62,297 nucleotides of DNA from an uncultured virus (IMG/VR IMGVR_UViG_3300047094_002559) (taxonomy: Duplodnaviria > Heunggongvirae > Uroviricota > Caudoviricetes): the IMG/VR virus record IMGVR_UViG_3300047094_002559; one strand, 5' to 3'. Positions 26,401 to 47,205 of the stretch are shown here, in pieces. A program made the translations under genes and the position numbers. A model generated the notes under the pieces. It worked only from the letters and a program-made list of their open reading frames with translations, was not told the DNA's origin and ran no database searches. Each line of letters opens with the position of its first letter. Within the stretch, counting starts at the first letter, position 1.

Positions 26401-27257
26401 GGGAGTGTGTCCGGCGTCCAGTGAGCAATGCGGCGATATGCCTTGGTGTCGATGACCGGCAGCGGAAACTGGTATCGCTCGTCCGACTGATTCAGGTGCT
26501 CGAGCGTCGCGTCGTAAGCGACCGGCAGCACACTGCGGAAGCGATACGGCTTGATCTCGTCGCTGATCAAGTAACGCACGTCTGTCGTGGGATCCACGAG
26601 CATGTGCCCGCGGGCCGGATGCGGAAATGCCATGAGCCGGGCAGAGACCCTGAGCGTGTCTGCCGGCGAGAATTCCTCCGGATCATCCTTCAGCCCCTCG
26701 CCGTGCGCCGTGATGCTCATCCACGTGAGCACCGGCCGGTAAAAGCCGCCCTGAAATGCCATGCCGTAGGAACGCAGCGCGGGGTCCTCGACCGCGCACT
26801 CGCCTCCCTCCTTCTTGCCGGTGTCCGGGTCTGTCGCCAAGGACGGCGTGCCGAACTCGCGCGGGATGCAGTGCCACACAGGGAACCCGTTCACGACTCT
26901 CATCTGCGTGAATTCCTGGTGGATCATGGCGCGGATGATGCCGTATTCGCGCCGCGTGATGTCGCCCATGATCTGGAACGGCTCGGACAAAAAATCGCCG
27001 ACCGACGCGATCAGCAGCAGCCGGTAAAATCCCTCGGCCGAGCCTTTGTTCATGAACAGCGTCGCGTCCTGATACACTCCCACGCCGGAGGCAACGGGCG
27101 CGTCCGGATTGAGTTCTTTCCATGTCCCCTGCGTGCCGGTGGTCGAGAACGCGGCATACACGTTCCCCGCGGGCGCGTCGGACGCCATCTCCCAGGTGAT
27201 CGCAGCGTTACGCGTTCCGTGGTTCGGATAAATGCGGACGTTGCGGAATACGCTCAT
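26397..27257 (-). CDS. Putative neck/head-closure protein
   Basis: FN3-like N-terminus and 'YGMAFQGGFYRP' segment. Lies between head and tail genes. Confidence 0.45.
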   Translation of the reverse strand: MSVFRNVRIYPNHGTRNAAITWEMASDAPAGNVYAAFSTTGTQGTWKELNPDAPVASGVGVYQDATLFMNKGSAEGFYRLLLIASVGDFLSEPFQIMGDITRREYGIIRAMIHQEFTQMRVVNGFPVWHCIPREFGTPSLATDPDTGKKEGGECAVEDPALRSYGMAFQGGFYRPVLTWMSITAHGEGLKDDPEEFSPADTLRVSARLMAFPHPARGHMLVDPTTDVRYLISDEIKPYRFRSVLPVAYDATLEHLNQSDERYQFPLPVIDTKAYRRIAHWTPDTLP

Positions 27258-27856
27258 TGCGACTTAGGCAAGCCGAGGCTGTCGATGTGTTGCGCGGCCT
27301 GTTCGTATGGGTCAGATGACGTCTGCGCTGCGGTCGCGGCAGGCGCCCCTGTCGGAGCTGGCTTCTCACCCTCTCCCGTTAGATAGCCGCCAGCCATACC
27401 TCCGAACCCGGCAGTCATACCGCCGGCAAGGAGTTTACCGCCTACCCCGGCTCGCTCCACGGCTTTTCCGGTTTGCATGGCTTTGATCACGCGGGGAGTT
27501 GCATTGGCCGCAAGACGAGAAGCTCCTCCGAAGAAGCCTTTGGCGGTTGACGCGACGCCTGGCAGAAACGACAGCGCCCCCCATCCGAGGTTGCTGACGC
27601 CCGACCAGAAGTTGCCGTTCGAAAAATCCTTGACCGCCTTGTAGCCGTAGTAAGGGACGCCGGTGACAGGATTCGAACCGGCGGCTATATCCAGCGCCAA
27701 CTCGCCAGTGTCACCCCATGTCCACCCTTTGCTGGGTGCGCCCGGCGCGACGGGCTGCGGCGCGCGGCCAGGCTGATACATCGGCGCGAACGGAAACGGC
27801 TCCGTGTTTGCGGCTTTCACCATCGGATCCAATAGAGCAAATGGCGTCGGTGTCAT
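27254..27856 (-). CDS. Glycine-rich putative virion protein with TPFA/KxA leader
   Basis: True start at ATG 27856 (ATGA overlap): MTPTPFALLDPMVKAA. Contains GxxxG hydrophobic segments. Confidence 0.65.
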   Translation of the reverse strand: MTPTPFALLDPMVKAANTEPFPFAPMYQPGRAPQPVAPGAPSKGWTWGDTGELALDIAAGSNPVTGVPYYGYKAVKDFSNGNFWSGVSNLGWGALSFLPGVASTAKGFFGGASRLAANATPRVIKAMQTGKAVERAGVGGKLLAGGMTAGFGGMAGGYLTGEGEKPAPTGAPAATAAQTSSDPYEQAAQHIDSLGLPKSQ

Positions 27857-28275
27857 CCTACGGCCCCCCATGCGCCTTCGAGGTTGGCGGTGACCTTCAA
27901 GTTCGTTGCAGCTTCCATAAATTCCGCCTCCAGTTTGTCGCGCAGGCGTTCGAGGTTCCTGAGCAGCGATCCCTGCACGCTGGCGTTGACGCCGCCGGCA
28001 GCGTAATCGAAATCGTTGATGCTCACGTTGCCGTGCCACCGGCGGTAGAGCGCCCACGCGATACCGTCGAAGAACACCGAGGAGTTGATCGGCAGTTTGT
28101 CCGACGTCACCTCGAAGCCCAGCGGTCGGATGGAGTTAAATTTTCGCGCACACTTGCTCATCGCCCACTCGATGTCAGGATCAGTGAACGCCAAGTCTGC
28201 GAGCACCAGGTGGTCCTCCGCCTGGCGATCCATCATGTCCTCTCGGACGTCAGCGATAGCGATGTAGCTAGCCAT
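27853..28275 (-). CDS. Putative head-tail adaptor
   Basis: 140 aa helical protein ('FTDPDIEWAM') downstream of capsid genes. Confidence 0.5.
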   Translation of the reverse strand: MASYIAIADVREDMMDRQAEDHLVLADLAFTDPDIEWAMSKCARKFNSIRPLGFEVTSDKLPINSSVFFDGIAWALYRRWHGNVSINDFDYAAGGVNASVQGSLLRNLERLRDKLEAEFMEAATNLKVTANLEGAWGAVG

Positions 28276-28278
28276 GCG

Positions 28279-29373
28279 TCAGTAGGTCGGGAAGAAGTCC
28301 CTGGTCAGTTGCTCACCGGAGCGCGGCGGGTGAGTTCGCCCGGTGGCGCCACCGCGCAGCAGCTTGGCTCTGTCTCGCGCCAGCCTGGAGTTTAACTCGT
28401 GACGTGCGAGACTTTCCTGGAGCGGCCCGATCCGGCGGTCCATTCCGCGCTGCACAGCGCCTGAATCGGCGAAAGGACCACGCCAATCACCTTCGCTCGC
28501 GGCCGCGGCCCACCGCCTCGGCGCGGCCCACCACGCCGTGCGTTGGTTCTCCAGATCCGCCTTACGCTTGGCGATCTGATCCATCATGCTTCGGCTGTGA
28601 TCCTCCTGCATGTCCAGGCGGTCCACGGTCTTGTTGAATTTTTTATCGTAACCTTCGTGAGACCGCTCAAGTTCCTTCAAGTCGTAGTAGTCGTTTGAGC
28701 CGGCCCGGATCGTTCCTCCGTCGAGCGCCTCGCGCAGTTTTGCCATGCGAGCGACAGAACTGTCGCGATTCTTGTTCATGTCGAAAATGCTAGGCTCGTG
28801 CTCGCCAAGGCGGTTCGCATACATCTTCTCGTATTCGCTCGAGCTGAGACCGCCGGGGGGCAGGAACGAGTCTGCGCCATATCCGCCATATCCGCCCGTC
28901 AGCATGTCGTCCTTGTTCCACCACTTGGTGCCTGCGTATGTGCCGCCAATACCTCCCGCGAGGAGGCCCATACCGCCGATGAACGGATGCTTGGTCAGGA
29001 ACGAAGGTTTGACTTTTGACGGGCCGACCGCCGCCGCAGTCGCCCGACCCACGCCGCTCAGGGCGCCCCAGCCGGCTGTGGCGGCTGCCCGTGGCGCATC
29101 CCAAAGCACCGCTTTACCCAGGCGTCCCAGACCGCCCCAAAATGGACCTGCCGCCTTCTCCATATCCGCGTGCGGAATCAGCATCGCACGCATCTGCCCG
29201 GGGAACGAGGCAACCTTCGCCAGATATCCGACGGCGAATGCAGGCCGGGCATCTAGCTCCTGGTCGAGCGACTCGCGCTGCAACAGCTGCGCGGCGGCCT
29301 CCTTGCTTAGTCCGTTCTCGAAGCAAGTCGTCAAAAATGCAGTAACAAATCGCTGAGTCATGGGCTCTCTCAT
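28279..29373 (-). CDS. Putative internal head protein (KxA motifs, one glycine-zipper helix)
   Basis: SKEAA, AKVAS, EKAAG motifs; 'GGMGLLAGGIGG'. Confidence 0.65.
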   Translation of the reverse strand: MREPMTQRFVTAFLTTCFENGLSKEAAAQLLQRESLDQELDARPAFAVGYLAKVASFPGQMRAMLIPHADMEKAAGPFWGGLGRLGKAVLWDAPRAAATAGWGALSGVGRATAAAVGPSKVKPSFLTKHPFIGGMGLLAGGIGGTYAGTKWWNKDDMLTGGYGGYGADSFLPPGGLSSSEYEKMYANRLGEHEPSIFDMNKNRDSSVARMAKLREALDGGTIRAGSNDYYDLKELERSHEGYDKKFNKTVDRLDMQEDHSRSMMDQIAKRKADLENQRTAWWAAPRRWAAAASEGDWRGPFADSGAVQRGMDRRIGPLQESLARHELNSRLARDRAKLLRGGATGRTHPPRSGEQLTRDFFPTY

Positions 29374-29379
29374 GTGGGA

Positions 29380-29408
29380 AGGCTACTTTGAAAATCGGCG
29401 CGTGGCAA
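29380..29408 (-). promoter_or_regulatory. sigma70-like promoter TTGCCA-N17-TAGCCT, 6 nt before ATG
   Basis: Intergenic, after the capsid terminator. Confidence 0.6.
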
Positions 29409-29489: not shown

Positions 29490-30458
29490 TTACGCGATGC
29501 CAGTCATCGTGTAGGTCAGCTTCTGCACGCCGAGGGTGTTGCCGATCGTGAGACCGACCTGCTCCTGGGCACGCATGCGGATGATGTCGTACTCCTTCTT
29601 GATGGTGACGGTGATGTCTTCGAGCATCAGCGCGTTGCCAAGGAATTCCTTGGGCGCGAACTGATACATGACGCCGTTTGCGACGAGTCCGTTCTTGATG
29701 GTGCTGACGAACGGGACGCCGAACATCTCGAACTTCTCGAGGGCCTTGAGACCCTTGCGGGCCACGTCCTGCGACAAGTCGCCGCCCATCTCCAAACGCT
29801 CCCAACCGAGAAACTCGTTGGCAGTGCGTTGATTGACGAGGACGACACCGATCGGCAGCTGGCGCTCAATGAGGTAGCTGACGGCGCGCTTCAGGCCCTT
29901 GCGGGAGAAGGTAGCGCTGGTCATCGTGACGTTCTGGTAGGCGCCCGGAGAGGCACTTTCCACCGTCGCGTAGGCCGTGGCACCACCCACGATGCGGTCG
30001 ATCTCCGTAAGGAACGAAGTGTCTTCCGCCGTGTGGATGTCACGCAGCATGTTGTCGTTGACGATCTGCCGAAGGTCCGTCTTGTAGGTCCGGAGCTGGT
30101 TGATGTTCTTCGTCGCTTCCTCGGTCGTGATCACCGACAGGAGCACCACATACTTCTCCGCGCGATACGAGAAGGAGTTCGGGGTGTCGTTGTAGGGGAT
30201 GACGCGAGCAGGCGGCGAGTCCGGTTCGAGTTCGTACCAAACTCCGGGGAGTTCCGAGTCCCCGAAATAATCGAGGTCCTCGTTGGTAATCATGTCGAAT
30301 GACAGAATCGCGCGCTGGAAGCCCTCCTCCCGGATTTGTGTCCGGGTGGCCTTCGAGGTCGCGGTGGATGCTTTCTTCACAACGCCGTCGTCCGATGAGA
30401 GGACGTCGTCGATGAGTTGCTTCTTGATGAGCAGGTCTTTTGCAGCTTGTTCGTTCAT
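29490..30458 (-). CDS. Major capsid protein (HK97-fold predicted)
   Basis: 322 aa in protease-scaffold-decoration-capsid order with a strong terminator. 'DIHTAEDTSFL', 'FGVPFVSTIK', 'RAQEQVGLTIGN..GV'. Confidence 0.8.
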   Translation of the reverse strand: MNEQAAKDLLIKKQLIDDVLSSDDGVVKKASTATSKATRTQIREEGFQRAILSFDMITNEDLDYFGDSELPGVWYELEPDSPPARVIPYNDTPNSFSYRAEKYVVLLSVITTEEATKNINQLRTYKTDLRQIVNDNMLRDIHTAEDTSFLTEIDRIVGGATAYATVESASPGAYQNVTMTSATFSRKGLKRAVSYLIERQLPIGVVLVNQRTANEFLGWERLEMGGDLSQDVARKGLKALEKFEMFGVPFVSTIKNGLVANGVMYQFAPKEFLGNALMLEDITVTIKKEYDIIRMRAQEQVGLTIGNTLGVQKLTYTMTGIA

Positions 30459-31089: not shown

Positions 31090-31503
31090 TTAGCCAAGAC
31101 CAGCCTCAGTGCAGCACCGTTCCCAAAGGTCGGTTCTGCTTTCGGATGATCCGGCTTCAGTCCGGGTTGCGGCTGGCTTATCGACCAGGTCCCCGTCCTT
31201 GCCGAACAAGTCGACGTAGAGCGGAAACACGGCCCTGGAGGCCAGCTTCTCCAGAAACTCGAGCAGTTCAGCAGGGCCGGCCTGCTCGAGAGATTTTGCG
31301 AGGTCCTTTCCAGTGTTGTCCTGGAAGGCGCCTGTCTTCATGAGTTCCTTGGCGACTGCAGCGCAGCGAACGGACGCCACTTTCACCAGGGTCACTGGCT
31401 CGGGGCGGCGGTGCGCGAGTTCTGCAGATTTCACGGCTGTTTCAGCGAGGTCGATGGCATCATCGATCACACTGAGCATCTCCGTGAACGCCTTGTTGTT
31501 CAT
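31090..31503 (-). CDS. Hypothetical head protein with KxA motifs
   Basis: VKSAE, VKVAS, EKLAS. Confidence 0.65.
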   Translation of the reverse strand: MNNKAFTEMLSVIDDAIDLAETAVKSAELAHRRPEPVTLVKVASVRCAAVAKELMKTGAFQDNTGKDLAKSLEQAGPAELLEFLEKLASRAVFPLYVDLFGKDGDLVDKPAATRTEAGSSESRTDLWERCCTEAGLG

Positions 31504-31527: not shown

Positions 31528-32649
31528 TTAGACTGCTGCTTCCTCCGGCATGCCTTCGGGCGCGGCACCTTCGCCGCCGGACGTCGCTTGAACAGCTTCG
31601 AGGATGTCCTCCTCGGTGATCTGACCGCTGGCGAGCATTTCCTGCAGCAGCGCCATGATCTCTTCCTCGCTGAGGGATTCGCCGCCCATCGGCAATGCTT
31701 CGTCGGCTGGCGAGGCGCCATCGGCTGGCGGCTCAGCACCTTCCGGGGCTCCGGCTTCGTCGGCCGCGGCCATGAGCGCCGCATCGTCCATGCCCTGCGC
31801 GTAGGCTGCCTTGAGCAGCGGATGATCGAGTGACGCGAGCGTCTCCTGATGCAGCGCGGCCTGCTTGATGATGGCGTCCGCGTGCGCCTCGGTCACGCCA
31901 GCTTCCAGCAGGCTCTCATGAATTTCGTGCACCTTGCGTCCGAGATCGTCGTAAGCGGCCTGCTTGATCTGTTCACCCTCGCCGAAGACGTGCGAGGCGT
32001 CGATGGCCTCGAGAATCTGCGCGCGGGCTGCGTCCTCGCCTGCCTGCTTCTCTAGGAGGTCATGCGCCATGCGGATGCCCTCGTCAGTGCTCACGAACAC
32101 GCGGGCGATTTTGCACAGCACTTCCGTGCTGAGGTCCAGCGTGGAAGCCCCGGTGCCGGCCTGCTTCTCAGTCTGCCGTGCGGGCTGTCTTGCGGGAGCG
32201 GACGCAGCGAAGCGCTGAGCGAGCGCGGGATTCGACTGCACCAGCGCTGCGCGGATACTCGCGGCGCGTTTGGAAAGGTTTGCGGCTTTCAGCGTCGTGC
32301 CGTCTGCGGGCTGGTCCGCCTTCAACTCCGCTTCACCCGGATCCTTGGGAATGCTGGCCTTGCTCGCGGTGATACCGCCCTGGCCGTCGGCGACGGTCAT
32401 ACGATCGGGTCTGCCGGCCGGAACCTGGGCCCCTTTGCGCGCCGTGCCGTCTGCCGGCTGCAGGCGCTTCAGTTCAGCTTCGCCGACATCCTTGGGAATG
32501 CTGGCCTTGCTCGCGGTGATACCGCCCTGGCCGTCGGCGACGGTCATACGGTCTGGTGCGCCTTCTCCGGCTGCGGATTTCTCGGCTGCGATCTTTTCCG
32601 CATACTGGCGAAGCGCGGCAGCCACTCGGTGTTGATTGGGTTTGGACAT
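31528..32649 (-). CDS. Scaffold-like head protein
   Basis: Acidic and helical with many KxA motifs. Lies between protease and capsid. Start set at MSKPNQ after an AC-rich leader. Confidence 0.6.
   Translation of the reverse strand: MSKPNQHRVAAALRQYAEKIAAEKSAAGEGAPDRMTVADGQGGITASKASIPKDVGEAELKRLQPADGTARKGAQVPAGRPDRMTVADGQGGITASKASIPKDPGEAELKADQPADGTTLKAANLSKRAASIRAALVQSNPALAQRFAASAPARQPARQTEKQAGTGASTLDLSTEVLCKIARVFVSTDEGIRMAHDLLEKQAGEDAARAQILEAIDASHVFGEGEQIKQAAYDDLGRKVHEIHESLLEAGVTEAHADAIIKQAALHQETLASLDHPLLKAAYAQGMDDAALMAAADEAGAPEGAEPPADGASPADEALPMGGESLSEEEIMALLQEMLASGQITEEDILEAVQATSGGEGAAPEGMPEEAAV
32341..32550. repeat. Intragenic direct repeat: 63 bp identical (32341-32403, 32488-32550), 147-bp period
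   Basis: Encodes RMTVADGQGGITASKASIPKD twice. Confidence 0.95.
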
Positions 32650-32706
32650 GTTAGTCGTGGGTTTGTTGGTGTGGAGGCTTTCGCCAGTGGATGTGATCTT
32701 GTGGTG

Positions 32707-32735
32707 AGTATGTATCAAAAATGGGCGGATGGCAA
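32707..32735 (-). promoter_or_regulatory. sigma70-like promoter TTGCCA-N17-CATACT for the scaffold-capsid operon
   Basis: Intergenic; followed by an approximately 50-nt AC-rich leader. Confidence 0.6.
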
Positions 32736-32738
32736 TCT

Positions 32739-34205
32739 TTATGCGCGACGAATCATCAAACTCGCGGCGAGCCCTCGAAACAGTGTGCCGGCGTTGACGT
32801 CCGGCAGGTCTTTGATCTGGTGTGCGGCTTTCACTAAGTAGTGTCCGTAAGCTTCTATCAGACCGCCGTAGTAGTCGTCGATATTTTTTTTGAGGCCCGG
32901 ACGCGCAGCGATGCTGCCGCTCTTGATGATCACCACGCGCATCGCACGATCAGACGCCTGACCTGTGCCCATTCCAAGGTCGCCGCCAACCTCGTCCATG
33001 AGACGATCGATGTTGTCCTTGCCGGGCGAGAAGGAGCAGCCTGTTTCGTCCGGCGCCACAGCGTCAGCGACATCCTCGCCGCACGCGCAGCCGCCGCTGT
33101 GCATCATCCCCGCCAGCAGCGAAGGCAGCTTGATTTCAGCAGCGTCGCACAGTGCCGCGTTCTTCTCGATGTCGGCTATCTTCTGTCCGGTCACGAGCGA
33201 AGCGAACGTGTAAAAATTGATGACCATGGCGCGCTTGGCCAGCTCGCCTCCGGCGTTGCGGAAGTCCACCTCGGCCAGTGTGTCTATCTGGTCGGCTGAA
33301 AGATCTTGCGGCGCCAGCTTGCACAGCACTTCCCGCGTCACCGCGTCAGCACGCTTCACGAATTCATCAGCCGCGGCGAGCTTCTGCAGTGTGAGATTTT
33401 CCCACTCGCTGAACGGCACGACGCGCGCATTGCCGAACTGAAACGCGGCCCATTGTGCGCCGGTAATGATCGCGTCGCCCGACGCAGCCTTCGCCATCTC
33501 GCCCTCCGGAAATGTGTAGCTCAGGAAAGTGGCGATGCGGTCAGCGCGTCGTTTGACTTCGCTGATGTCGAAGAACTTCACGTCGTCCTCGTTGCGGGCG
33601 TAGGCATACTTCTCAAACCCATCCACGAACCGCAGCATGTTGTTCTTCAGATGGCTGCAGTAGTCCGTTGTGCGCTTGCTCTTTTTCTTGCAGCACGAGC
33701 ACTCGTCATGCGGGAGGCGCATGGACATCGACCAAGACAGCTCCTCGCCGGCCTTCGCCTTCTTATACATGTCCGGCGCCTTGTCCTTTTCCACCCAGGC
33801 GATCAACTCGCCGCGGTGCATCTTCGGATTCACCCGGGCCAGTCGGACGGTGCCGATGCCCTGAGTCACGGGGTTGCGATTTTTGTGTTCGCGGAATACG
33901 CATCCAAATTTTTCGAACGTGCCGTGGTGACGGTCCAGCGATCGCCGGCTGGCTGAGTCGCCGTTGCGGTTCGGCCCAAAAGTTTCTTCCTCGCCCATCG
34001 TGATCAGATGCACGCCAAACTGATCATCCGGAGGCATGTGCTCCTGCAGATCCAGGCGCGAGATGACGTCCGATGCCGACTTCGTAAATCCACTGCGGCC
34101 CCGGTCGCGCTCGAAGAATGTGAAAGCCTTGCCGTCAGCCGCCCGCAGCAGCTCCGCGTGGTCGTCCGTGGCGAATGATTTTTCGAGTTCGCGTTCGATG
34201 TGCAT
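32739..34205 (-). CDS. Prohead maturation protease (HK97/herpes-assemblin-like) with Zn-finger insertion
   Basis: 'GPNRNGD', 'FREH', 'SWSMSM..PHDECSCC...CSHL', 'FFDISEV..RADRIA'. Upstream of scaffold and capsid. Confidence 0.75.
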   Translation of the reverse strand: MHIERELEKSFATDDHAELLRAADGKAFTFFERDRGRSGFTKSASDVISRLDLQEHMPPDDQFGVHLITMGEEETFGPNRNGDSASRRSLDRHHGTFEKFGCVFREHKNRNPVTQGIGTVRLARVNPKMHRGELIAWVEKDKAPDMYKKAKAGEELSWSMSMRLPHDECSCCKKKSKRTTDYCSHLKNNMLRFVDGFEKYAYARNEDDVKFFDISEVKRRADRIATFLSYTFPEGEMAKAASGDAIITGAQWAAFQFGNARVVPFSEWENLTLQKLAAADEFVKRADAVTREVLCKLAPQDLSADQIDTLAEVDFRNAGGELAKRAMVINFYTFASLVTGQKIADIEKNAALCDAAEIKLPSLLAGMMHSGGCACGEDVADAVAPDETGCSFSPGKDNIDRLMDEVGGDLGMGTGQASDRAMRVVIIKSGSIAARPGLKKNIDDYYGGLIEAYGHYLVKAAHQIKDLPDVNAGTLFRGLAASLMIRRA

Positions 34206-35024: not shown

Positions 35025-36593
35025 TTACGCTCGCTTGTTGCTGTCGGAACGCACCAGCGACAGCGGACCGGCGCCGCCGACAGTGTAGCGCGATTTCTCG
35101 TTGATGTCGGAAAGTTCGTCCGCCTGTTCGCTGTTGCGGCGGATTTCAGAAAGCAGCTTCTGCGAGTCCAAGGTGAGCCCTTCGTAACTCACTGCCTCGC
35201 GCAGGATCAAGCGCAAAGCAGCCATGTCGCCCGCGAGTTGCGGGTTCCTGGCGGTGACCGAGTTGTAGATCTCCAGCACGACTTTCGGGTCCGCTTCCTT
35301 CAGCACGGGATCTGTGCCGATCAGTCGGCGAATGGCCATTGCGCGCTTGATGTCCTCCACGGACACATCAGCGGAAATCTGCGCCTTGTTCAGCCGCGGC
35401 TTGGACGTGATGCCGGTGATCACTCCTTCGGCTTTGTCCGCGGCAGCCTGCGTTGCTCCGGCTACTGCGGCGACTGGCTTTCCGAGCAGATCCATCAGGC
35501 TGATGGACTCCTGCTTGTTCTCGGGATCGCTGGTGCTGCGCTTGTCTCCAGTCGACTTGTCGCCGCCGCCGCCCACGGGCGGTCCGCTGGCGCGCGGCGG
35601 ACCACCAGATCCAGCGGCGGGCTGTGCTGTTGTCGAGATCGAATCGACATTATCCAGCGACTTCTGCGCGTCGTCCACCTTGGCCTTGTCCGCCTTCTCA
35701 GGTTTAGGGACGTTGAATATATCGCTGACGTCTGCATCATTGTCCACCTGGTGGACCTCGACCGCGGTGCCGTCGCTGGCCTTGGCGGCCATCTTGATCA
35801 GCACTTCCAGCGTGCTGGCGGCCTTCGCCAGTTCTGCAAATTTCTGCCCGAGCGCGTGTCCGATGTCGTAGGCCCGCTGCGGCACGCGGACGTCATAAGC
35901 AAACCGCAGCAGCTTCGTGCGATGCGGCGCTGCGAACTTCTCCATGAACGCGCCGGCCGCTTTGACCGCGGCGGGCGGCTGATACTGCAGCGCCTCTTGT
36001 TCGAACTCGGAAATGTCGCGCTGGAAATGCCAGTCGCCAACACGCGGCGCCGCTGTAAAAATCTCACTGGCGAGTTTGGACATCTCGTCTTCGAGATCAA
36101 CTTCGAGCGTCAGCAGCGCATCCTGCAACTGCTCGCGCGACACCGCCTGCTTGAATGTTTCGTGCACCTTCGCCGGCTGGTCAGTCACCTGCGCGGCTGC
36201 CTTTTCCAGATTCGCCTCACGCCTCATTGCGGCGGCCAAGTCGACGGTGCGCGGATCGTGCGTCGAAAAAGAATGCGGACCGGCCGCTGCCTTCTCGTGA
36301 TTGAGTCCGGTGGCGTAGCCGACCACAAGCGTCGGAACATCCACCAGCGGCACCGTCTGACCGCGCGCGTCGTCCGCAGCGTGATCGATGTAACTGACGG
36401 TGCGGAGAGTGTTGTAAACCTGGGCGAGCTTCTCGAGCTGCGCAGGCGGCAGATCCTCGCGAGCGGCATACTCTGTGAGGACAACCTCGGCCCCGCGCTT
36501 CTCGATGTCGGGCACGAGATTCACCACGGTTCGAACAGCGGAATCATGCGTCATGCTGTAACCATATCCGTTCTCTTGCTGCGTGTCCATCAC
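35025..36593 (-). CDS. Putative head/core protein rich in KxA motifs
   Basis: EKAAA twice, FKQAV, SKLAS, VKAAG, EKFAA, AKAAS, IKMAA. C-terminal 'DPVLKEADP..V..IYN' domain. Confidence 0.7.
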   Translation of the reverse strand: MMDTQQENGYGYSMTHDSAVRTVVNLVPDIEKRGAEVVLTEYAAREDLPPAQLEKLAQVYNTLRTVSYIDHAADDARGQTVPLVDVPTLVVGYATGLNHEKAAAGPHSFSTHDPRTVDLAAAMRREANLEKAAAQVTDQPAKVHETFKQAVSREQLQDALLTLEVDLEDEMSKLASEIFTAAPRVGDWHFQRDISEFEQEALQYQPPAAVKAAGAFMEKFAAPHRTKLLRFAYDVRVPQRAYDIGHALGQKFAELAKAASTLEVLIKMAAKASDGTAVEVHQVDNDADVSDIFNVPKPEKADKAKVDDAQKSLDNVDSISTTAQPAAGSGGPPRASGPPVGGGGDKSTGDKRSTSDPENKQESISLMDLLGKPVAAVAGATQAAADKAEGVITGITSKPRLNKAQISADVSVEDIKRAMAIRRLIGTDPVLKEADPKVVLEIYNSVTARNPQLAGDMAALRLILREAVSYEGLTLDSQKLLSEIRRNSEQADELSDINEKSRYTVGGAGPLSLVRSDSNKRA

Positions 36594-37554: not shown

Positions 37555-40125
37555 TCAGTTTTCCTGCGCCGAATACTGATCCGGTTTGAACTGCTGCAGC
37601 ATGCGCAGCAGATTTTCGCCAGCGCGGGTCGCGAGTTCCGCGAGTTCCTGCTCGAAGTCGATCAGGTCTTCCTTGCCGTAGATCTCCTCGAAGTCCGCCG
37701 GCCGGTAGCGCAGCAGAAACAGAGTGCGGAAGTAGCGGTCCACGCCGGCCTCGAAGTCCGGGATGTAGAGCTTGATCTGATCGACAATGCCGTGACTGGT
37801 GGTGGCCATCTGCGACACAGCGCCGTGGTCCAGGATGTGCGGCATACCATACTGACTCGACATCTGCGCCAGTTCCTCGGGCGAACTGTTCATGATCATG
37901 TCCATCGGCAGCAGCGACTCGGCGGTCTCAGAATTCCTACCGCGCGGTCCCTGATAGGTGTCGCCGTAGCGTGACTGCTGGTCCGGGCGTCGCGGTGTGT
38001 GCGTGGAGAGAATCTGCTGCTGAGGCGCGTCCAGCCGGACGTTCAGCTCGGGATCAAAGCTCTGCACCCACTGCTCCATGCCCTCCGGCCTGGTCAGGTA
38101 TGCCTGCTTGGTGACGGAGTCGAAGATGCGGTAGGTCACGTCGCCGTCGACAGCCTTGTTGAGAATCTTGCCTGCGACATCGGTGCGCAGCGAGAAGTCT
38201 TCCGCCAGTGCGAGATGCGCCTCCAGCCACCCGAGGTTGCGAGCCGCCTTGAGCAGCGTGCCGTCCTCGCGATGCTCCACGTCGAATGTGGGCCCGGCCT
38301 TCGGACGCACCGTCACCTCGTTGGCGGTCGTGATGCCGCCGGCCGTGCGCATCCACTGCTCGACGCCGGCTGACGACATCGGGAACCGTGTGCACTTGGG
38401 CTCGACCTTGCGGACTCCGTCGTCGTCGTCACGCTTCACGTCACAGTCCACTTCCAGGAAGAACGTCTCATCGCTGAGGTATCGACCGGACGTCTCACCG
38501 CGACCAGGCGCGTAGAACAGCTTGGTCTGGTCGCCGTAGCCGATGGAGATCGTGATCACGGAGCACTCACCGTCCTTCGCAATGTCGGCCACGTGAAATG
38601 GGCGCGAGATGCTGAGGTCCCGGGTGTCGAGCGCGACGTAGCACTTCCCGGTCGAAATGGCGTCGCCAGTCACTGCCTTGGCATTTGTGTCCTGGTCGAT
38701 CGTTTCATCGCCGAACACATCCTCGCCCGAGGGCAGCCTGAACAACTGCTTGTCGCTCGGGAAGTAGGCATACTCGATTTTGCTGGGCGAGCCGCTGCCG
38801 CCGCAGGGCGACGGTCCGCTGTTGTCGAAAAGCAGGTGGTCGCTCTCGCGCAGCAGGAGTGCTTCCTCCGTGTCACCATTTGCCATGAGCAGTTGCACCT
38901 TGCCCGGGGACGACAGTTCCTTGATGGTGCCGGCGCCGACTTCCTCGATGACGGTGTTGACGCTGTCGGCGAGCCGGTGGTCGACCAGGTCGTAGCCTTT
39001 GTCGAAGATGCGCTCGCGCTGGGCCGCGGATTTGGCCAGCTCCGGCGACAGGATGATGGAGATCGCAGGACGCGGGCCGGACGCCTCTTTGGCCAGCCAG
39101 CCGTTCACCGTCTCGAGATCCTCCTTCGTGTAATTGGATGCGACGGCCGCGGCGACGCCCGGACTGTTGCCGATGAATGCGGCGAGCTTCTCCAGTGCCT
39201 CGGGGCCGTGCGCGTCGATCACCAGCGGCAGCAGCTTGCGCATCGGCGCGTCGTCCGCGCTGTGCAGCATGAGCTCCCTCCAGATCGAACCGTCGGCCGC
39301 GGCCTTCTTGAAAGCTTCCGCGTGCGGCGCGTTCTCTTTCTTCTGCGTCGTAACGCGAAGAGCGTGGTGGCGCATCAAATCGCGCAGCTGTTCGCGAGTA
39401 AGTAGATTTTTCTCTTCGATGTGATCCAGCTTCAGGCCAGTGATGGCTTTGTCGGCCAATTCGTCCGACATGAGATGGCGGTTCTGCTTGCCGCTTGCGA
39501 TTGCTTCATGCACCTCGTCATCAGACTCGTAAATTTCCGCGTCAGCATGCGTCTCGACATCCTCCGCGCCGGGCTTCTTGCTCTGTTTGTCCCCAGCATA
39601 CTTCTCGGCGAGATACTCGCGCGTCTCAGCGTCCGCCTTCTCATTGATATCGGCTAATGTCAGACGATCAGCCGCATACTTGACGCGCTGCGGATAGGCC
39701 AGCCGGTCCATGTAGGCATCCGCCTGTCGATACCGGTTGCGGTCGACGGGCTCGCCGGCGCTCTCGTGATTGCCGCGCACCAGGTATGCGCACCAGTCCT
39801 CGGTGAGTGGGACGAAGCGTTTGACGTCCGTGCGGTAGAGCATGTCGGCCGCCTTGATCTCGCCGTTGACGAAAAACACCGGGGCGTAGAGCAGGTTGCT
39901 GTTCACCCGGAACGCGAAGATGCCGACCATCTTGGTCGCCTTCTCGTTGCGATGCACGATCTCGAAGCCGAGCCGGAACGGATCCTGGAACAGAATCTTG
40001 GCCTTGTTGGCGACGATTGCGTAGCTCTGGTCCATGAAGGACTTCTGGACAGCGCCGTAGTCGACGCCCTCCTGCGAGGCCGCCTGCTTCCACTGGTAGT
40101 TGGGGTCGATGATTTCGGTGGTCAT
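37555..40125 (-). CDS. Large putative head protein with KxA motifs
   Basis: 856 aa. WKQAAS, VKYAA, FKKAAA, EKLAA, AKEAS, AKSAA, LKAAR, TKQAY. Confidence 0.75.
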   Translation of the reverse strand: MTTEIIDPNYQWKQAASQEGVDYGAVQKSFMDQSYAIVANKAKILFQDPFRLGFEIVHRNEKATKMVGIFAFRVNSNLLYAPVFFVNGEIKAADMLYRTDVKRFVPLTEDWCAYLVRGNHESAGEPVDRNRYRQADAYMDRLAYPQRVKYAADRLTLADINEKADAETREYLAEKYAGDKQSKKPGAEDVETHADAEIYESDDEVHEAIASGKQNRHLMSDELADKAITGLKLDHIEEKNLLTREQLRDLMRHHALRVTTQKKENAPHAEAFKKAAADGSIWRELMLHSADDAPMRKLLPLVIDAHGPEALEKLAAFIGNSPGVAAAVASNYTKEDLETVNGWLAKEASGPRPAISIILSPELAKSAAQRERIFDKGYDLVDHRLADSVNTVIEEVGAGTIKELSSPGKVQLLMANGDTEEALLLRESDHLLFDNSGPSPCGGSGSPSKIEYAYFPSDKQLFRLPSGEDVFGDETIDQDTNAKAVTGDAISTGKCYVALDTRDLSISRPFHVADIAKDGECSVITISIGYGDQTKLFYAPGRGETSGRYLSDETFFLEVDCDVKRDDDDGVRKVEPKCTRFPMSSAGVEQWMRTAGGITTANEVTVRPKAGPTFDVEHREDGTLLKAARNLGWLEAHLALAEDFSLRTDVAGKILNKAVDGDVTYRIFDSVTKQAYLTRPEGMEQWVQSFDPELNVRLDAPQQQILSTHTPRRPDQQSRYGDTYQGPRGRNSETAESLLPMDMIMNSSPEELAQMSSQYGMPHILDHGAVSQMATTSHGIVDQIKLYIPDFEAGVDRYFRTLFLLRYRPADFEEIYGKEDLIDFEQELAELATRAGENLLRMLQQFKPDQYSAQEN

Positions 40126-40142: not shown

Positions 40143-40823
40143 TCAGAACAAATTGGTGCTCCCGGGGTGCTTCTCTCGATGCTTCCTTGCTGCCTCGATT
40201 ATTGCGTGCTGCTTGTCGGACATCTGAGCACCTCCGTTTCCTTGCTGTTCCTGCTGTTTGAATAATTTGCTTCTCAACTGCTCCAATCCGGTGACCCCGC
40301 CGACGCCAATCGCGCCCATACCGGCCAGATTACCAGCCTGTCCTGCGCGACCAAGCGCCGTCGGCAACGGTGTCATTTGCGTTCCGTGCAGCAGATGGGA
40401 ACCGCTTTCTATCATATCCCTAGGAGCGCGCAAAGCGCCGCGTCCAAAGTTGAGAAGCGCCTTGAGGATGTTGCTTCCTGCGCCTGCACTTTTACCCATT
40501 CGCCGATGCTCCATGCCGACGGTCGGCACCAGCGGATCCAGGTCCGCGTAATCCGAGATCGCGTTGCTTACGGCCGCGCCGCCAACACCGACCCCGCCGC
40601 CGATCAGCGCGCCGACCAGTGCGCGCAGCAGGACGGACTTCTGATCCTTGCCGCCCAGCGCAGAAGGCGCTCCAACAGCTGAAGCCGCACCCAACATCGC
40701 GCCTGGTATCGCGCCGGCCAGTCCACCCGCCGCGAGTTTTAGGTTTTTCCTTCGCTGCCTTACTTCGTCGTAGGAGCGTGCGGATGCTGATTTTTCGAGC
40801 AGTGCGAAAGGTGTCATGATCAT
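40143..40823 (-). CDS. Two-module glycine-zipper protein
   Basis: MTPFALLEKSASA leader; second module begins at MGKSAG. Confidence 0.7.
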   Translation of the reverse strand: MIMTPFALLEKSASARSYDEVRQRRKNLKLAAGGLAGAIPGAMLGAASAVGAPSALGGKDQKSVLLRALVGALIGGGVGVGGAAVSNAISDYADLDPLVPTVGMEHRRMGKSAGAGSNILKALLNFGRGALRAPRDMIESGSHLLHGTQMTPLPTALGRAGQAGNLAGMGAIGVGGVTGLEQLRSKLFKQQEQQGNGGAQMSDKQHAIIEAARKHREKHPGSTNLF

Positions 40824-40865: not shown

Positions 40866-41909
40866 TCAAATGTAGTGACGGTTCTCGTTCGCGTCATACT
40901 CGTAGTAGTTGGTGTCGCCGCCTTTTTTCCAACTGCGTGCGATCCCACTGAGGAACCCAGGCTGAAACCGGCGGCTGTTCTGTTGCTCCCACGTTCCGAT
41001 GGTGCCGGGCAGTTGTTTCTCGATTCGGTCAGCCAGCAGCGTTGGGTCCATCTTCAGCGCCATGCGCTCGAGTCCCGTCATCTTGTCCAGCCCCTGCTGT
41101 ATCTTGGCCTGGGCGCCGGCGTAGCCGCGCGTGCGGACGCTCTGCTCGTCGTAGGGCTTGTCGCGTAAAATGGAGTGCCCCAGCATTCCTGCTCCAATCG
41201 TTGGAAACAGCCACGGAAACACGTTGGAGAAAACCTTGCCGAAACTGCCGGACTTCAGCATCGCTTGCGGCAGCATCAGTCCGTGCATGCGCCGGTCCAC
41301 GCGGTCGTTGATCAGCGTGTCAGGATCCTCGAACAGCGACTGGATATACTTCAATTTGGACAGCGGCTTGTAGGGCTTGCTGGAGTATTGATCCGCCAGG
41401 TCCGCAGTCGCCGCGTCGTTCTGGCGAAGATACTGCCGCGCCAGTCCGGGGCGAGTGAGATAGTTAGAATCCATCTGCCCAAGGGACATCATGTCGGCCC
41501 CGGCCCCGCGCGCGCCGATGAGCACGTCCTCCTGCAACCTAGCCCGGTTTCCCGGGCGGTTCGCGCGATACGCGCTGATCAGGCTCGGCGCCGTCATCAG
41601 TGCCCCCAGCACTGGCATGGAGGCATTCATCGCAAGGTTCGATCCCGGCACGTCGTATCCGGCGAGTCCCGCCGCCATCCCGCCAAGGCCGTAGCCCATC
41701 AGCCCCTTGTTGAGCGTGGTCATCTTGTCCGTGACCGGGTCGTGAAACAGGCGCGACGCTTTCCCCCAGAAGCTGCCTGGTTGTGTCTTCGTCGCTACGC
41801 GCTTCCAGAGACCGTCGCGCACCAGACTGTGCAGGCCTCGCAGAATTGTTCCGCCGGAGGACGACTTGGTCATGTCAGCCTCGCTCGCGAGTTGGGCGAA
41901 AGCAGTCAT
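40866..41909 (-). CDS. Two-module membrane-helix protein
   Basis: MTAFAQL...TKSS leader; second module begins at MLKSGS. Hydrophobic helices in each module. Confidence 0.7.
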   Translation of the reverse strand: MTAFAQLASEADMTKSSSGGTILRGLHSLVRDGLWKRVATKTQPGSFWGKASRLFHDPVTDKMTTLNKGLMGYGLGGMAAGLAGYDVPGSNLAMNASMPVLGALMTAPSLISAYRANRPGNRARLQEDVLIGARGAGADMMSLGQMDSNYLTRPGLARQYLRQNDAATADLADQYSSKPYKPLSKLKYIQSLFEDPDTLINDRVDRRMHGLMLPQAMLKSGSFGKVFSNVFPWLFPTIGAGMLGHSILRDKPYDEQSVRTRGYAGAQAKIQQGLDKMTGLERMALKMDPTLLADRIEKQLPGTIGTWEQQNSRRFQPGFLSGIARSWKKGGDTNYYEYDANENRHYI

Positions 41910-41920: not shown

Positions 41921-43582
41921 TCAGATGGTCTGGCGCAGTCGGGCCAAGATGGATGCCTTGTTCTGCTCGAGCATCGCCTGCAGCGCTGCGGCCGACGGCT
42001 GCTCGCCCTGTCCCCTGAACACATTCAAGATCCTTCCCAGGATGCCGGGATCTTGCGGCGCGTTCTGCAGCGCTGCCTGAATGCCGTAGTCGACGCCGGT
42101 GTTGTAGCCTTTATCGAGACCTTCGGTCAGCCCGCTGTTGCGGCCCATGCGGTTGCTGCCGTAGAGCGCGACGCCGCCTGCGCCGGCGCCGAGTCCCAGT
42201 TTAACACCCGGCGAAAGGCCTTCCCTCTCTATCTTGTTCAGAATTTCACGAGCTTCCGGCGACGCCTTCGCAGTAGCAGTCCCTGGCAGCGCCTTCGTCA
42301 CAGGATTCGGAAGCATCGTCATCTTAATCTCGGGTCCTGCACGTCTCGTCGCGGCGCTTACGGCGGGTTGCCCACGTTTCGCAACTGCCGACCCCACCCG
42401 TTTCAACACCTCCAGCCCGCCTGCTTCCTTCTGCATGTCGAAGCACGCGAAGGGCGTCAGGCTGGCGCGCTTCGTTTGCCAGGGAGCATTCGCAGCCGCC
42501 AGCACGCTGCCGCCGCTACGCTGAGCATTTTGCATGTTCGTCCACTTGGCGACGTCCATTTTACTATTTGGATTATAAGCGTTCGCTTTGCCTTTGCCGT
42601 GATATTTGGCCCACATTGCAGGATCTGGAGCGCCACTAGGTGCTGGCGCAGCGCCCGGCCGGGCCGCTGTCGTTCCCGCCCACGCCGGTGCGGCTGCTGG
42701 GGGACTGCCCGCTCCAAGGGCCGCCATTGCCGGGGGTGCAGGTGTGTCACTCGGTCCGGCTGCCGGGGGCTGGTTCAGCTTACCTTGCCACTGCGGCTTA
42801 CCATACGTATCCGGAGTTCCGTAGGCCCACGACGGCTTGGCTCCGGAATCGCCTCCAAGCGGCGACGAACTCGGCGAAATCGGCGACGGCGAAAGCGGCG
42901 GTGAACCGCCTCCAAGAGTTATCAGCTGCGGCGAACTAGGTTCACTGGTTGCGCCACCCCCAGTTCCGGTCGGCTCATCGAAGCCGCCTGCACTGCCGCC
43001 GCTGGTCATAGGGGCGGCAGCAGGGGCGGCAGCTGGTGCCGCTTTTCCAGAGGTGGCATCGATGAGGCCTTTCCCCATATTCGCAGCCCCATCACCCAAT
43101 GCACCGACGGCCCCGGGAATCAGTCCAGCAGTGTGTCCAACTGCCCCGACTACGCCGCCAGCCGCTTGTAATCCCCCACCCACAGCCTGTCCCACGTTGC
43201 GACCGACAGCCTGCAGGCCATCCCTGCCGCCATTCCATGCACCATCCGCCGCGCCCTGCCCGACCGCTCCCCAGTCGATGTCACCAGGTTGTTGAAATTG
43301 CCGCTTCAGCGCGTTCGCGCCGCCCGATATCATACCGCCAGCAGCGCGAAAAGGAGTCGCTATCCCTTGAGCGGCGGCACCTAGAGCGCCTGACGCCGCA
43401 TTACCCACGCCTGATACGGTGTTACCGATCGCGTTACCGATCGGTTTGATATTGTTGTTCCAAAAATTGTCGAACGCCGGTCCCGCCTGTTTCACGAGCG
43501 GATTCAGATGTCGTGCGTGCCGTCTGCCGGCACTTTTTGGCATGAGTTCGAGCTTAGCAAACGGCGTGATGTAGCGATTCAT
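41921..43582 (-). CDS. Gly/Pro/Ala-rich multi-module protein
   Basis: ITPFAKL..PKSA, VKQAG, TKRAS-LTPFA..QKEAG. Start 43582 chosen from promoter spacing. Confidence 0.7.
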   Translation of the reverse strand: MNRYITPFAKLELMPKSAGRRHARHLNPLVKQAGPAFDNFWNNNIKPIGNAIGNTVSGVGNAASGALGAAAQGIATPFRAAGGMISGGANALKRQFQQPGDIDWGAVGQGAADGAWNGGRDGLQAVGRNVGQAVGGGLQAAGGVVGAVGHTAGLIPGAVGALGDGAANMGKGLIDATSGKAAPAAAPAAAPMTSGGSAGGFDEPTGTGGGATSEPSSPQLITLGGGSPPLSPSPISPSSSPLGGDSGAKPSWAYGTPDTYGKPQWQGKLNQPPAAGPSDTPAPPAMAALGAGSPPAAAPAWAGTTAARPGAAPAPSGAPDPAMWAKYHGKGKANAYNPNSKMDVAKWTNMQNAQRSGGSVLAAANAPWQTKRASLTPFACFDMQKEAGGLEVLKRVGSAVAKRGQPAVSAATRRAGPEIKMTMLPNPVTKALPGTATAKASPEAREILNKIEREGLSPGVKLGLGAGAGGVALYGSNRMGRNSGLTEGLDKGYNTGVDYGIQAALQNAPQDPGILGRILNVFRGQGEQPSAAALQAMLEQNKASILARLRQTI

Positions 43583-43589
43583 GCCGGGC

Positions 43590-43618
43590 ATTCTACGCGA
43601 AACCAAACACGCAGGCAA
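43590..43618 (-). promoter_or_regulatory. sigma70-like promoter TTGCCT-N17-TAGAAT, 7 nt before ATG
   Basis: Near-consensus -10 box, intergenic. Confidence 0.7.
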
Positions 43619-43630
43619 TATCAATTACGC

Positions 43631-45484: not shown

Positions 45485-45490
45485 CCCGGA

Positions 45491-45519
45491 ACGATACCCG
45501 CGAATGTCGCAAGCGGCAA
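45491..45519 (-). promoter_or_regulatory. sigma70-like promoter TTGCCG-N17-TATCGT, 6 nt before the RNAP ATG
   Basis: Lies in the divergent intergenic region. Confidence 0.65.
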
Positions 45520-45555
45520 GCTCAGAACGCTATTCAATCAATTGAACGAAAAACC

Positions 45556-45584
45556 TTGCTGGGCGGTATTGCATCTGACAAGCT
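45556..45584 (+). promoter_or_regulatory. Candidate promoter TTGCTG-N17-CAAGCT for the MarR-like gene
   Basis: 17-nt spacer; 13 nt before ATG. Confidence 0.35.
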
Positions 45585-45597
45585 GCTCCGTCGAAAC

Positions 45598-46008: not shown

Positions 46009-46267
46009 CCGAGAGAAAGTAAGGAGACGCAGGAGCGCCGGCGAAGTTCAACCGCATCGTGCCTGAGATGCAGCGCAATTCCTGAATCACCACGCCATTG
46101 GTGATCGTCCCGCTGAAGCCTGGATGCTCGCGCCAAGTCGTGTCGCCCGCGTGTTTGAATTCCAGCTTCGGAATATCGGCCACGTTCGTCAGCACGATGG
46201 TCATGAGATGACCCTGCTCCAGGTAGGTGAGGTTGATCTGCTGCAGCTGGCCGGTGTATTGCATCAT
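45986..46267 (-). CDS. Small beta-rich hypothetical protein
   Basis: Has its own promoter; overlaps the MarR-like gene 3' end convergently. Confidence 0.6.
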   Translation of the reverse strand: MMQYTGQLQQINLTYLEQGHLMTIVLTNVADIPKLEFKHAGDTTWREHPGFSGTITNGVVIQELRCISGTMRLNFAGAPASPYFLSVIDGEDF

Positions 46268-46276
46268 GGCTTTGAA

Positions 46277-46305
46277 AGTGTAGGGACAACCGGTAAAATA
46301 TGCAA
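46277..46305 (-). promoter_or_regulatory. sigma70-like promoter TTGCAT-N17-TACACT, 9 nt before ATG
   Basis: Intergenic. Confidence 0.65.
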
Positions 46306-46313
46306 CCGCAGAT

Positions 46314-46562
46314 TCACCGACCCTCCGAGCCCAGGCTGTGCTGCACCTCGAGTTCGTCGTGTCGTTGGACGCGCGCGGCGCCCAGGCCGTGAGCGTGACA
46401 ATAGGCGGTGAAAACCGGGTCGCCCGGAATCATGGCGCGGATGAGGTTGCGATGATCGGTGAACACGACCATCGCGAGACGACCGTCACCGTCCAGAACC
46501 TCGACTGCTGCCGTCGCGGGCACAGCCTGCGACGTCCCGTCCCGGTTGCGGATGCGCACCAT
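46314..46562 (-). CDS. Hypothetical protein (MVRIRNRDG...)
   Basis: Start trimmed to ATG 46562, 1 nt after the upstream stop. Confidence 0.6.
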   Translation of the reverse strand: MVRIRNRDGTSQAVPATAAVEVLDGDGRLAMVVFTDHRNLIRAMIPGDPVFTAYCHAHGLGAARVQRHDELEVQHSLGSEGR

Positions 46563-46563
46563 G

Positions 46564-47205
46564 TTACATTCCCTGCTGCGGGCCGCTGAACATCTGCGCG
46601 AGGCGCTGCTCGAGTTCGTCGAAGTTCGCCATGACATCTTCCAGCTGCTGCTTCATTCCCTGCATCTCTTTCTCGTGTTGCTCGCTGCCGGCCGCCAGTT
46701 GCTCGATCACGCCGATGATCTCTTCGAGCATCTCGGGCGTAATCGGAGACGCCGGAGGAGGCTGCTGCTGCGGAGGCATCCCGCCCTGCATCATCGAAGG
46801 GTCCATCGGCATGCCGGTGTTCGGATCGACTGGCATACCCTGCGGAGGCATGCCGCCCTGCATCATTGACGGGTCCATTCCTGGAGGCATCCCCTGCGGA
46901 GGCATACCCTGCGGAGGCATACCACCTTGCATCATCGATGGGTCCATTCCTGGAGGCATCCCCTGCGGAGGCATACCACCTTGCATCATCGACGGGTACA
47001 TCGGCATGCCGGTGTTCGGATCGACTGGCATACCCTGCGGAGGCATGCCGCCCTGCATCATTGACGGGTCCATGCCTGGAGGCATGCCGCCGCCAGGCAT
47101 CGGCGGCGCGGCCATGAATGCTTCTTTGCGAATGGTTTCGAGGTCGGCCCGCTCCTGGCGCAAACGGGCGAGGCTTTGTTTCATGCTGGCGAGATCTGCG
47201 GACAT
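46564..47205 (-). CDS. Met/Pro/Gly/Gln-repeat protein with flanking coiled coils
   Basis: RKEAF, then repeated MDPSMMQGGMPPQG. Start chosen from promoter spacing. Confidence 0.7.
   Translation of the reverse strand: MSADLASMKQSLARLRQERADLETIRKEAFMAAPPMPGGGMPPGMDPSMMQGGMPPQGMPVDPNTGMPMYPSMMQGGMPPQGMPPGMDPSMMQGGMPPQGMPPQGMPPGMDPSMMQGGMPPQGMPVDPNTGMPMDPSMMQGGMPPQQQPPPASPITPEMLEEIIGVIEQLAAGSEQHEKEMQGMKQQLEDVMANFDELEQRLAQMFSGPQQGM
46765..47100 (-). repeat. Coding tandem repeats (GMDPSMMQGGMPPQ; GMPVDPNTGMPM x2)
   Basis: Repeated ccctgcggaggcat and tgcatcat units. Confidence 0.9.

Follow-up and report, generated by a model that had tools for sequence, protein, structure and literature searches.

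A Lys-x-Ala motif in the head proteins of an uncultured tailed phage as a probable prohead-protease cleavage code

The 62,297-nucleotide stretch of DNA analyzed here as a whole (the window) belongs to an uncultured virus of the Caudoviricetes (IMG/VR record IMGVR_UViG_3300047094_002559) and corresponds to bases 5896-68192, read on the reverse strand, of one phage contig of 184,016 bp. The proteins encoded by its head module, among them the prohead protease, a putative scaffold and the major capsid protein, share a short Lys-x-Ala motif. We infer, with a probability of about 0.7, that this motif serves as a cleavage code for the prohead protease, comparable in kind to the I/L-x-E of phage T4 and the A-x-E of phage phiKZ but with a different specificity. 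A sequence-only reading of the window had proposed KxA as the recognition site of the prohead protease, and the proposal is supported by the enrichment of the motif, by the fold of the protease and the sites that flank its catalytic domain, by the position of the site in the capsid protein, by recurrence in relatives, and by constraint on the motif residues.

Enrichment of Lys-x-Ala in the head module

Expected counts for each protein were obtained from composition-preserving shuffles, 1000 for each window protein (10 overlapping open reading frames [ORFs] judged spurious were left out) and 2000 for each protein genome-wide; these shuffles do not control local composition. As a guard against cherry-picking, all 2000 residue pairs at gaps of 0 to 4 were scored blind. 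In the 14 head-module proteins, K.A (the dot being any residue) ranks first of the 2000 gapped pairs, with 67 occurrences vs 34.4 expected (z 6.4). L.K and EK are also among the top five pairs, and KA, K..A, K...A, A.K and A..K are not comparable to K.A in this blind scan. With Ala, Ser or Gly at the next position (K.A[ASG]), the pooled count over 15 head-module proteins reaches 41 vs 10.9 (z 9.2). No enrichment was seen in the head set for R.A (46 vs 39.7), K.S or K.G. Outside the head set, K.A stays at chance level: 28 vs 33.9 in the tail set, which comprises 19 tail-side proteins of at least 100 aa, and 149 vs 148 in 104 proteins from the remainder of the genome. Shuffle tests gave no enrichment of K.A[ASG] in the proteins between 352 and 27257.

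The observation made in the sequence-only reading is confirmed, with two corrections. Every peptide it named is present in the protein concerned, and the excess of K.A after correction for Lys and Ala content, a test set beforehand, came through strongly in both the shuffles and the pair scan. Tail proteins, which it had called sparse in the motif, are indeed not organized in this way, but they sit at chance rather than being depleted; the names it gave to tail genes (sheath, tube and baseplate J) were confirmed only in part. Within the range it had drawn, 27254..47205, the enriched genes occupy 28279-43624 and nothing was found in 43631-47205, and enriched proteins also occur outside that range. 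As a marker of head proteins, multiple or extended motifs are informative; a single K.A is not, since occurrences outside the head set are at chance. K.A is absent from two head-module proteins (34208-35017 and 40866-41909).

The full motif reads [L/M]-x-K-x-A-[A/S/G]. In a logo of the 67 head-set sites, Leu or Met stands at -2 from the Lys in 32 (background, 12%), Ala, Ser or Gly at +3 in 41 (background, 29%), and Glu is favored at -1. Over 176 proteins, [LMIVF].K.A[ASG] occurs 59 times vs 16.4 expected, and 29 of these extended motifs fall in ten head-module proteins whose summed expectation is about 2. Logos from five distant lineages lean alike; the trend is clear in Salmonella phage Arash and Vibrio phage D69 and weaker in three further relatives (L006, L033 and L029).

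The protease and its putative substrates

The prohead protease (488 aa; 32739..34205, minus strand; head maturation protease PHROG 18299, E 1.6e-4) has a catalytic domain of gp21 fold (residues ~46-230) followed by some 250 aa of helical C-terminal extension. It has 346 homologues at E <= 0.001, and an AlphaFold model built from 40 sequences has a mean predicted local distance difference test (pLDDT) score of 80.8. The N-terminal domain of the model matches T4 gp21 (5jbl_A) with a Z score of 11.8 and a root-mean-square deviation of 2.8 Å over 147 of 165 residues; the next matches are the proteases of varicella-zoster virus (Z 5.8) and human cytomegalovirus (Z 4.4), and Foldseek also gives gp21 (probability 1.0, E 3.5e-3). 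No Pfam family was matched at E <= 0.01, and a profile of 40 homologues found no sequence match among PDB chains at E <= 10; for this reason the protease is filed, on the strength of its predicted model, as a structural homologue of gp21 and not as a member of a curated sequence family. His107, Ser157, Ser159 and Ser161 are invariant in the 40 homologues. T4 gp21 cuts after I/L-x-E and uses H85 and S140 (available portion of PMC12991175), and the candidate pair His107 and Ser161 has a spacing of 54, close to the 55 there.

The protease itself carries the motif well above expectation (K.A[ASG] 4 vs 1.0; plain K.A 11 vs 3.9 in shuffles), as does each of the 40 homologues, with 8 to 17 K.A vs 2.7 to 4.9 expected. 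The two best-kept sites bracket the catalytic domain. TKSAS at residue 42, just before it, is kept in 40/40 homologues, with A, S or G next in all of them, and AKAAS at residue 239, just after it, is kept in 39/40. Other K.A sites are kept at residues 275 (36/40), 324 (32/40), 428 (32/40; the window copy reads K-S-G at this conserved position) and 459 (25/40). In the model, residue 42 lies in a loop, and residues 234-257, which hold site 239, and 424-434 are low-confidence linkers. A predicted complex of protease residues 46-238 with capsid residues 1-60 scored 0.10, below the mark of 0.32, a result that weighs on neither side. Two homologues are much longer than the rest (P0177, 852 aa; P0234, 834 aa) and carry the intein/homing-endonuclease Pfam domains PF05203 and PF14890, which suggests, at the level of sequence, that some relatives have inteins within their head protease gene.

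The major capsid protein (322 aa; 29490..30458, minus strand; PHROG 2522, E 4e-6) has an HK97 fold: Foldseek ranks HK97 gp5 chains first among the matches to its model (E 6e-8, probability 1.0, about 240 columns), and 209 PDB matches lie at E <= 0.001, for a model whose pLDDT is only 66.5. A PDB sequence search with the capsid profile returned nothing useful. V-K-K-A-S occupies residues 27-31 (Lys-x-Ala at 28; about 30366-30380), within a low-confidence stretch of the model. V-K-x-A-S is conserved over 33 aligned capsid homologues, the most divergent of which read K-x-S-A there. The site marks the end of a less conserved N-terminal leader of variable length, and a strongly conserved segment leading into the body of the protein follows it.

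Between the protease and capsid genes lies an Ala/Glu-rich ORF (31528..32718, minus strand; probable start Met24, near 32649) whose position and composition make its product a putative scaffold; no family match was found for it. It holds 11 K.A sites, 7 of them K.A[ASG] (vs 1.4 expected), including the peptides EKSAA, LKAAN, SKRAA, EKQAG (twice), IKQAA (twice) and LKAAY, and five of the seven K.A[ASG] sites recur in four or more of five orthologues. Within residues ~55-133 (window 32320-32556), a unit of about 48 residues (PDRMTVADGQGGITASKASIPKD...) is repeated in tandem.

Further motif-bearing proteins surround these three. The 137-aa product of 31090..31503 (minus strand) has four K.A sites (K.A[ASG] 3 vs 0.38, p 0.003), two of which are kept in 4/4 orthologues. 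The 522-aa product of 35025..36593 (minus strand) has 13 K.A vs 4.3 and 7 K.A[ASG] vs 1.1, four of the seven being kept in 4/4 orthologues. In the 856-aa protein of 37555..40125 (minus strand; K.A[ASG] 8 vs 1.1), nearly all K.A sites fall in the N-terminal ~370 residues, where they are kept while the intervening segments vary by insertions and deletions of up to ~120 residues; the C-terminal ~480 residues are conserved. This protein is the orthologue of Arash gp218, with weak BLAST matches to gp218 and to its D69 orthologue; it has no match in Pfam, PHROGs or PDB sequences, and a comparison of its C-terminal part with the Atlas gave no usable match. Just downstream of the capsid gene, a 364-aa protein (28279..29373, minus strand; K.A[ASG] 3 vs 0.75, p 0.037) has three extended motifs in its first 75 residues, kept in 2/3, 0/3 and 2/3 orthologues. 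Beyond the range of the earlier reading, a 1280-aa protein (55198..59040, minus strand) with an InPase domain (PF18823, E 3.7e-35) and PHROG matches that include minor head protein, virion structural protein and DarB-like has K.A sites throughout its length (K.A[ASG] 8 vs 2.7, p 0.007) and is a candidate for packaged cargo. BLASTP among the motif-bearing proteins detected no paralogy at E <= 0.01, indicating that the recurrence of the motif is not inherited from a shared domain. A possible role of C-terminal K-x-A as a product mimic (35025-36593 ends in KRA, 30481-31050 in KAA) was considered and rejected, the C-termini being unconserved in orthologues.

Four otherwise unrelated window proteins, all encoded on the minus strand, start with (T/S)(P/A)FAxL followed within 2 to 7 residues by K-x-A or K-x-S. 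These are a 226-aa Gly/Ala-rich protein (40143..40823; M-I-M-TPFALLE-K-S-A-S; K.A[ASG] 3 vs 0.65), a 347-aa protein (40866..41909; M-TAFAQL...M-T-K-S-S), a Gly/Ala/Pro-rich protein in a 567-aa ORF (41921..43624; ..I-TPFAKLELMP-K-S-A-G, then V-K-Q-A-G) and a 200-aa protein (27254..27856; M-TP-TPFALLDPMV-K-A-A). The 347-aa protein reads K-S-S at the site where its orthologue in the relative G001 reads K-A-A-S. The 567-aa ORF probably starts at Met12 or Met15; it has three extended motifs vs 0.36 and weak PHROG tape-measure matches on its Gly-rich part. The 267-aa ORF call at 27254-28057 starts too early, and the 200-aa version begins with the leader, as do its orthologues in six relatives (L005, L008, L009, L015, L017 and L018). 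In G001 the leader stands on four consecutive upstream genes. The leader pattern was searched for and not found in Arash, D69, L006 (with its upstream stretch L049), L033 and L029, and the 226-aa protein had no match in the two relative genomes searched. Internal proteins of T4 carry short N-terminal capsid-targeting leaders that end in the protease motif. The arrangement seen here is like them, and by that analogy the TPFAxL leaders may have a targeting role.

Recurrence in relatives and the genome setting

Head modules of relatives (IMG/VR and metagenome contigs) were gathered by capsid alignment, and D69 and Arash were added; the protease as a single query for related loci matched the identical contig only. 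Among cultured phages, just four relatives were found, Salmonella phage Arash (OQ632216) and the Vibrio phages D69, D181 and D148, with 28% capsid identity. They share the gene order of the window, and their proteases are 36 to 37% identical to that of the window over about 210 residues; the protease homologue of L033 is ORF 6553-7344. The blind scan of 2000 pairs was repeated in 10 relatives on the ORFs up to and including the capsid gene. K.A ranks first in 8 of the 10 (L005, L012, L017, L018, L021, L006, L029 and Arash) and in L033 and D69 it comes second to Cys pairs that occur 2 to 6 times; its z score ranges from 5.4 to 8.0. Nine downstream (tail) sets could be formed, and in them it ranks 322 to 1953. 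Five of the 10 lineages have only 28 to 32% capsid identity to the window, and the guanine-plus-cytosine (GC) content ranges from 44 to 63%.

Genome-wide in Arash, 6 of 214 ORFs stand out: gp220, gp221, gp222 (the protease), gp223, gp225 and gp242. These six account for 27 of the 41 extended motifs, the other 208 ORFs having 14 vs about 15 expected, and all six proteins appear in the published table of the virion proteome. The Arash capsid protein, gp226, whose site reads L-V-K-E-A, is listed there with 86.64% coverage, positions not given.

The constraint test covered ten head-module families with 3 to 5 orthologues each at 33 to 75% identity, some ORFs being trimmed to their likely start. 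The Lys of K.A[ASG] is retained in 115 of 145 comparisons (79%) vs 361 of 743 (49%) for other Lys, and the motif Ala in 121 of 145 (83%) vs 932 of 1900 (49%) for other Ala.

Outside the window, two proteins of the same genome are also enriched in K.A[ASG], at genome positions 72827-74068 (5 vs 0.56) and 126996-128471 (6 vs 1.09). Both are unannotated, distant from the head module and as motif-rich as head proteins, and their products may be packaged. Comparable enriched outliers occur in relatives, namely, gp242 in Arash and ORF 26466-27317 in D69. Within the window, the 845-aa protein of 47720-50257 begins M-S-K-Q-A-S-T, a motif copy at the extreme start of a protein that is not enriched overall.

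The window has a GC content of about 62%, all its credible genes lie on the minus strand, and most of them stayed unnamed after family searches. The order protease, Ala-Glu-rich ORF, two small ORFs, HK97-fold capsid gene is common to the window and relatives, and the protease gene adjoins the putative scaffold and major capsid genes, as gp21-type protease genes do. Megablast of window 29000-46000 against the phage collection, at near-identity sensitivity, gave no match. Other family matches include an amidase gene (61338-62270, minus strand) and, outside the window, terminase, DNA polymerase and more RNA polymerase pieces. The RNA polymerase large-subunit pieces are dispersed (window 43631-45484, minus strand; genome 131912-136210 and 178250-181384); the window piece is directly upstream of the head module, an arrangement also found in Arash (gp216), and none of the pieces in the genome is enriched in K.A. 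Amid the tail-side structural genes, 2824-3588 encodes a 254-aa protein with sigma-70 region 3 (PF04539, E 4.4e-7); the Arash sigma factor gp10 likewise lies amid structural genes and was detected in the virion preparation. A low-GC island at 4001-7400 (0.52 vs ~0.62) encodes a transferase with hexapeptide repeats (4558-5166; PF00132, E 3e-15) and, at 6529-7365, a product that weakly matches glycosyltransferases; the island may be a cassette for surface or DNA modification that was acquired within the tail region. Window 7457-8635 encodes a 392-aa protein with weak tail-fiber matches, at whose N-terminus a long Ser/Gly run precedes four Cys residues in a row.

Cleavage signal, docking signal or by-product

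How would such a motif work? In the reading we prefer, the motif hydrophobic (L/M)-x-Lys-x-Ala-(Ala/Ser/Gly) would be both recognized and cut by the prohead protease that the phage itself encodes (32739-34205). In the assembled procapsid, the protease would cut before and after its own catalytic domain and so free it, trim about 30 residues from the capsid N-terminus, and fragment the scaffold and several head proteins, most notably the 856-aa protein over its first ~370 residues. It would also strip the short TPFAxL...K-x-A leaders from a family of Gly-rich proteins, with these leaders acting like the capsid-targeting sequences of T4. The bond most likely cut is the one after Ala, which would put Lys at P3, Ala at P1 and a small residue at P1'; this placement follows the P3-x-P1 spacing of the T4 I/L-x-E and SPN3US A-X-E signals, and the small residue at +3 fits it.

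Several observations weigh against this reading. No measured cleavage product, mature N-terminus or mass was found for the phage or any relative, and the position of the cut bond is set by analogy with T4 and SPN3US. Since the protease lacks both a Pfam match and a sequence-level match to any PDB chain at the thresholds given above, its catalytic His and Ser are assigned from invariance alone. Sites 275, 324 and 459 lie in confident helices of the protease model, and K199-Y-A, within the catalytic domain, is kept in 40/40 homologues with Tyr next; the latter is probably structural, meaning that not every conserved K.A is a site. Coverage in the Arash virion proteome is 95 to 100% for gp220, gp221, gp223 and gp242 and 84.9% for the protease, and peptides from the supposed propeptide regions are therefore present in the preparation. 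That preparation contained 116 proteins, metabolic enzymes included, so it probably did not consist of pure virions. The words "protease" and "cleav-" are absent from the text of the Arash paper, and the available part of the supplement, a file of gene features and sequences, contains no peptide list.

Near-complete coverage of several motif-rich Arash proteins and conserved copies in confident helices would suit a docking signal, one that anchors head proteins on the core of the scaffold, on the inner wall of the capsid or on the protease so that they are incorporated, with cleavage taking place elsewhere or not at all; so would the confinement of the motif to head-module and candidate packaged proteins and its presence in N-terminal leaders. 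We nevertheless regard docking as unlikely. Seven to 13 copies per protein would be needless for a tether, which has no need either for sites in the flexible linkers bracketing the catalytic domain of the protease or for one at the junction between the variable leader and the conserved body of the capsid protein. A small residue after Ala, seen at 41 of 67 sites, is typical of a scissile bond, and known gp21-type systems, such as T4 with its capsid-targeting sequences, join the targeting leader and the cut site in one element. Recognition by a different enzyme, either a host protease or one that modifies or cross-links Lys, has a still smaller chance of being correct. Lys is strictly required and is not replaced by Arg, so its chemistry could matter. 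However, the motif is common to phages of very different hosts and of 44 to 63% GC (Arash, D69 and uncultured ones), which makes a common host enzyme unlikely, and it co-occurs in every case with a conserved phage protease that itself bears the most conserved copies; Pfam and PHROG family searches of the head module yielded no candidate modifying enzyme.

The least probable explanation, which we consider strongly disfavored, is that the motif has no recognition function and is a by-product of Ala/Lys-rich helices or of a small repeated domain. Many of the motif proteins are Ala-rich and helical, the putative scaffold has an internal repeat, and per-protein shuffles are blind to local composition. 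Yet the enrichment is restricted to the i, i+2 spacing, positions -2 and +3 show preferences of their own, and the motif residues are far better kept than other Lys and Ala. The same pair tops the scans of independent lineages at 28 to 32% capsid identity, the motif-bearing proteins show no paralogy, and several conserved copies lie in loops or low-confidence linkers rather than helices.

The cleavage reading places the window next to well-studied systems. With T4 it shares the protease fold, the reuse of a three-residue motif of P3-x-P1 style in the capsid N-terminus, scaffold-like proteins and the protease, and short N-terminal leaders that end in the motif. It differs from T4 in the motif itself, K-x-A-[ASG], with no enrichment of [LI].E in the head set (47 vs 39.7, z 1.3), and the window protease, unlike gp21, has the helical C-terminal extension of ~250 residues with further sites. 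Herpesvirus assemblins cut at Ala|Ser, and their sites have a hydrophobic P3. They are of the same fold class, and if the cut falls after Ala, the small P1 and P1' would resemble Ala|Ser; P3 would be Lys instead of a hydrophobic residue, [VLI].AS is not enriched (8 vs 8.1), and the structural match is weak compared with that to gp21. Arash and D69 have the same K.A enrichment and logo and homologous protease and capsid proteins, but their genomes have 53% and 44% GC vs 62% for the window and the leader pattern was not found in them. According to the available portion of PMC10052503, gp245 of SPN3US cuts after A-X-E, has several motifs per propeptide and cleaves itself, and this gp21-type protease processes capsid, portal and abundant ejection proteins. 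The window resembles these phiKZ-type phages, as far as that portion describes them, in its gp21-type protease and in several motif copies within one protein region. Multisubunit RNA polymerase genes are also present in both, and Arash polymerase subunits were found in the virion preparation. It is unlike them in that [ASG].E is not enriched in the head set (79 vs 83.6, z -0.6), in the lack of a nucleotide match to the phage collection at near-identity sensitivity, and in its small, 322-aa HK97-type capsid protein.

Overall, this appears to be a familiar kind of system, with a gp21-type protease, a reused motif and targeting leaders, whose Lys-x-Ala specificity, as judged from sequence, would be new. 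No description of a Lys-x-Ala cleavage code was found in the literature covered, which left out subscription journals and in which the prohead-protease motif work found was that on T4 and phiKZ/SPN3US. The searches listed 128 capsid and 346 protease homologues. A broader proposal, to which we give slightly less than even odds, is that in this large and little-studied clade of ~180- to 220-kb phages with multisubunit RNA polymerases a gp21-fold protease has shifted from P1 Glu to P3 Lys, P1 Ala and a small P1', near the Ala|Ser bond of herpesviruses, and that a removable TPFAxL...K-x-A address leader loads Gly-rich proteins into the head.

Experimentally known prohead-protease codes are few, for example, the T4 I/L-x-E and the phiKZ/SPN3US A-x-E, and the cultured relatives Arash and D69 make direct testing of the present one possible. 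If the code is confirmed, mature capsid, scaffold and cargo proteins would become predictable from sequence where about 90% of structural genes lack annotation, and throughout the clade the processed head proteome could be mapped from sequence alone. The leader peptide could serve as a tag for packaging foreign cargo in capsids, and the code would indicate which host "tripwire" defenses that sense phage protease activity, as described in the available portion of PMC12991175, could respond. It would also be a third code on the same fold, spread across a deep and mostly uncultured clade, and would show how specificity evolves in the gp21/assemblin fold.

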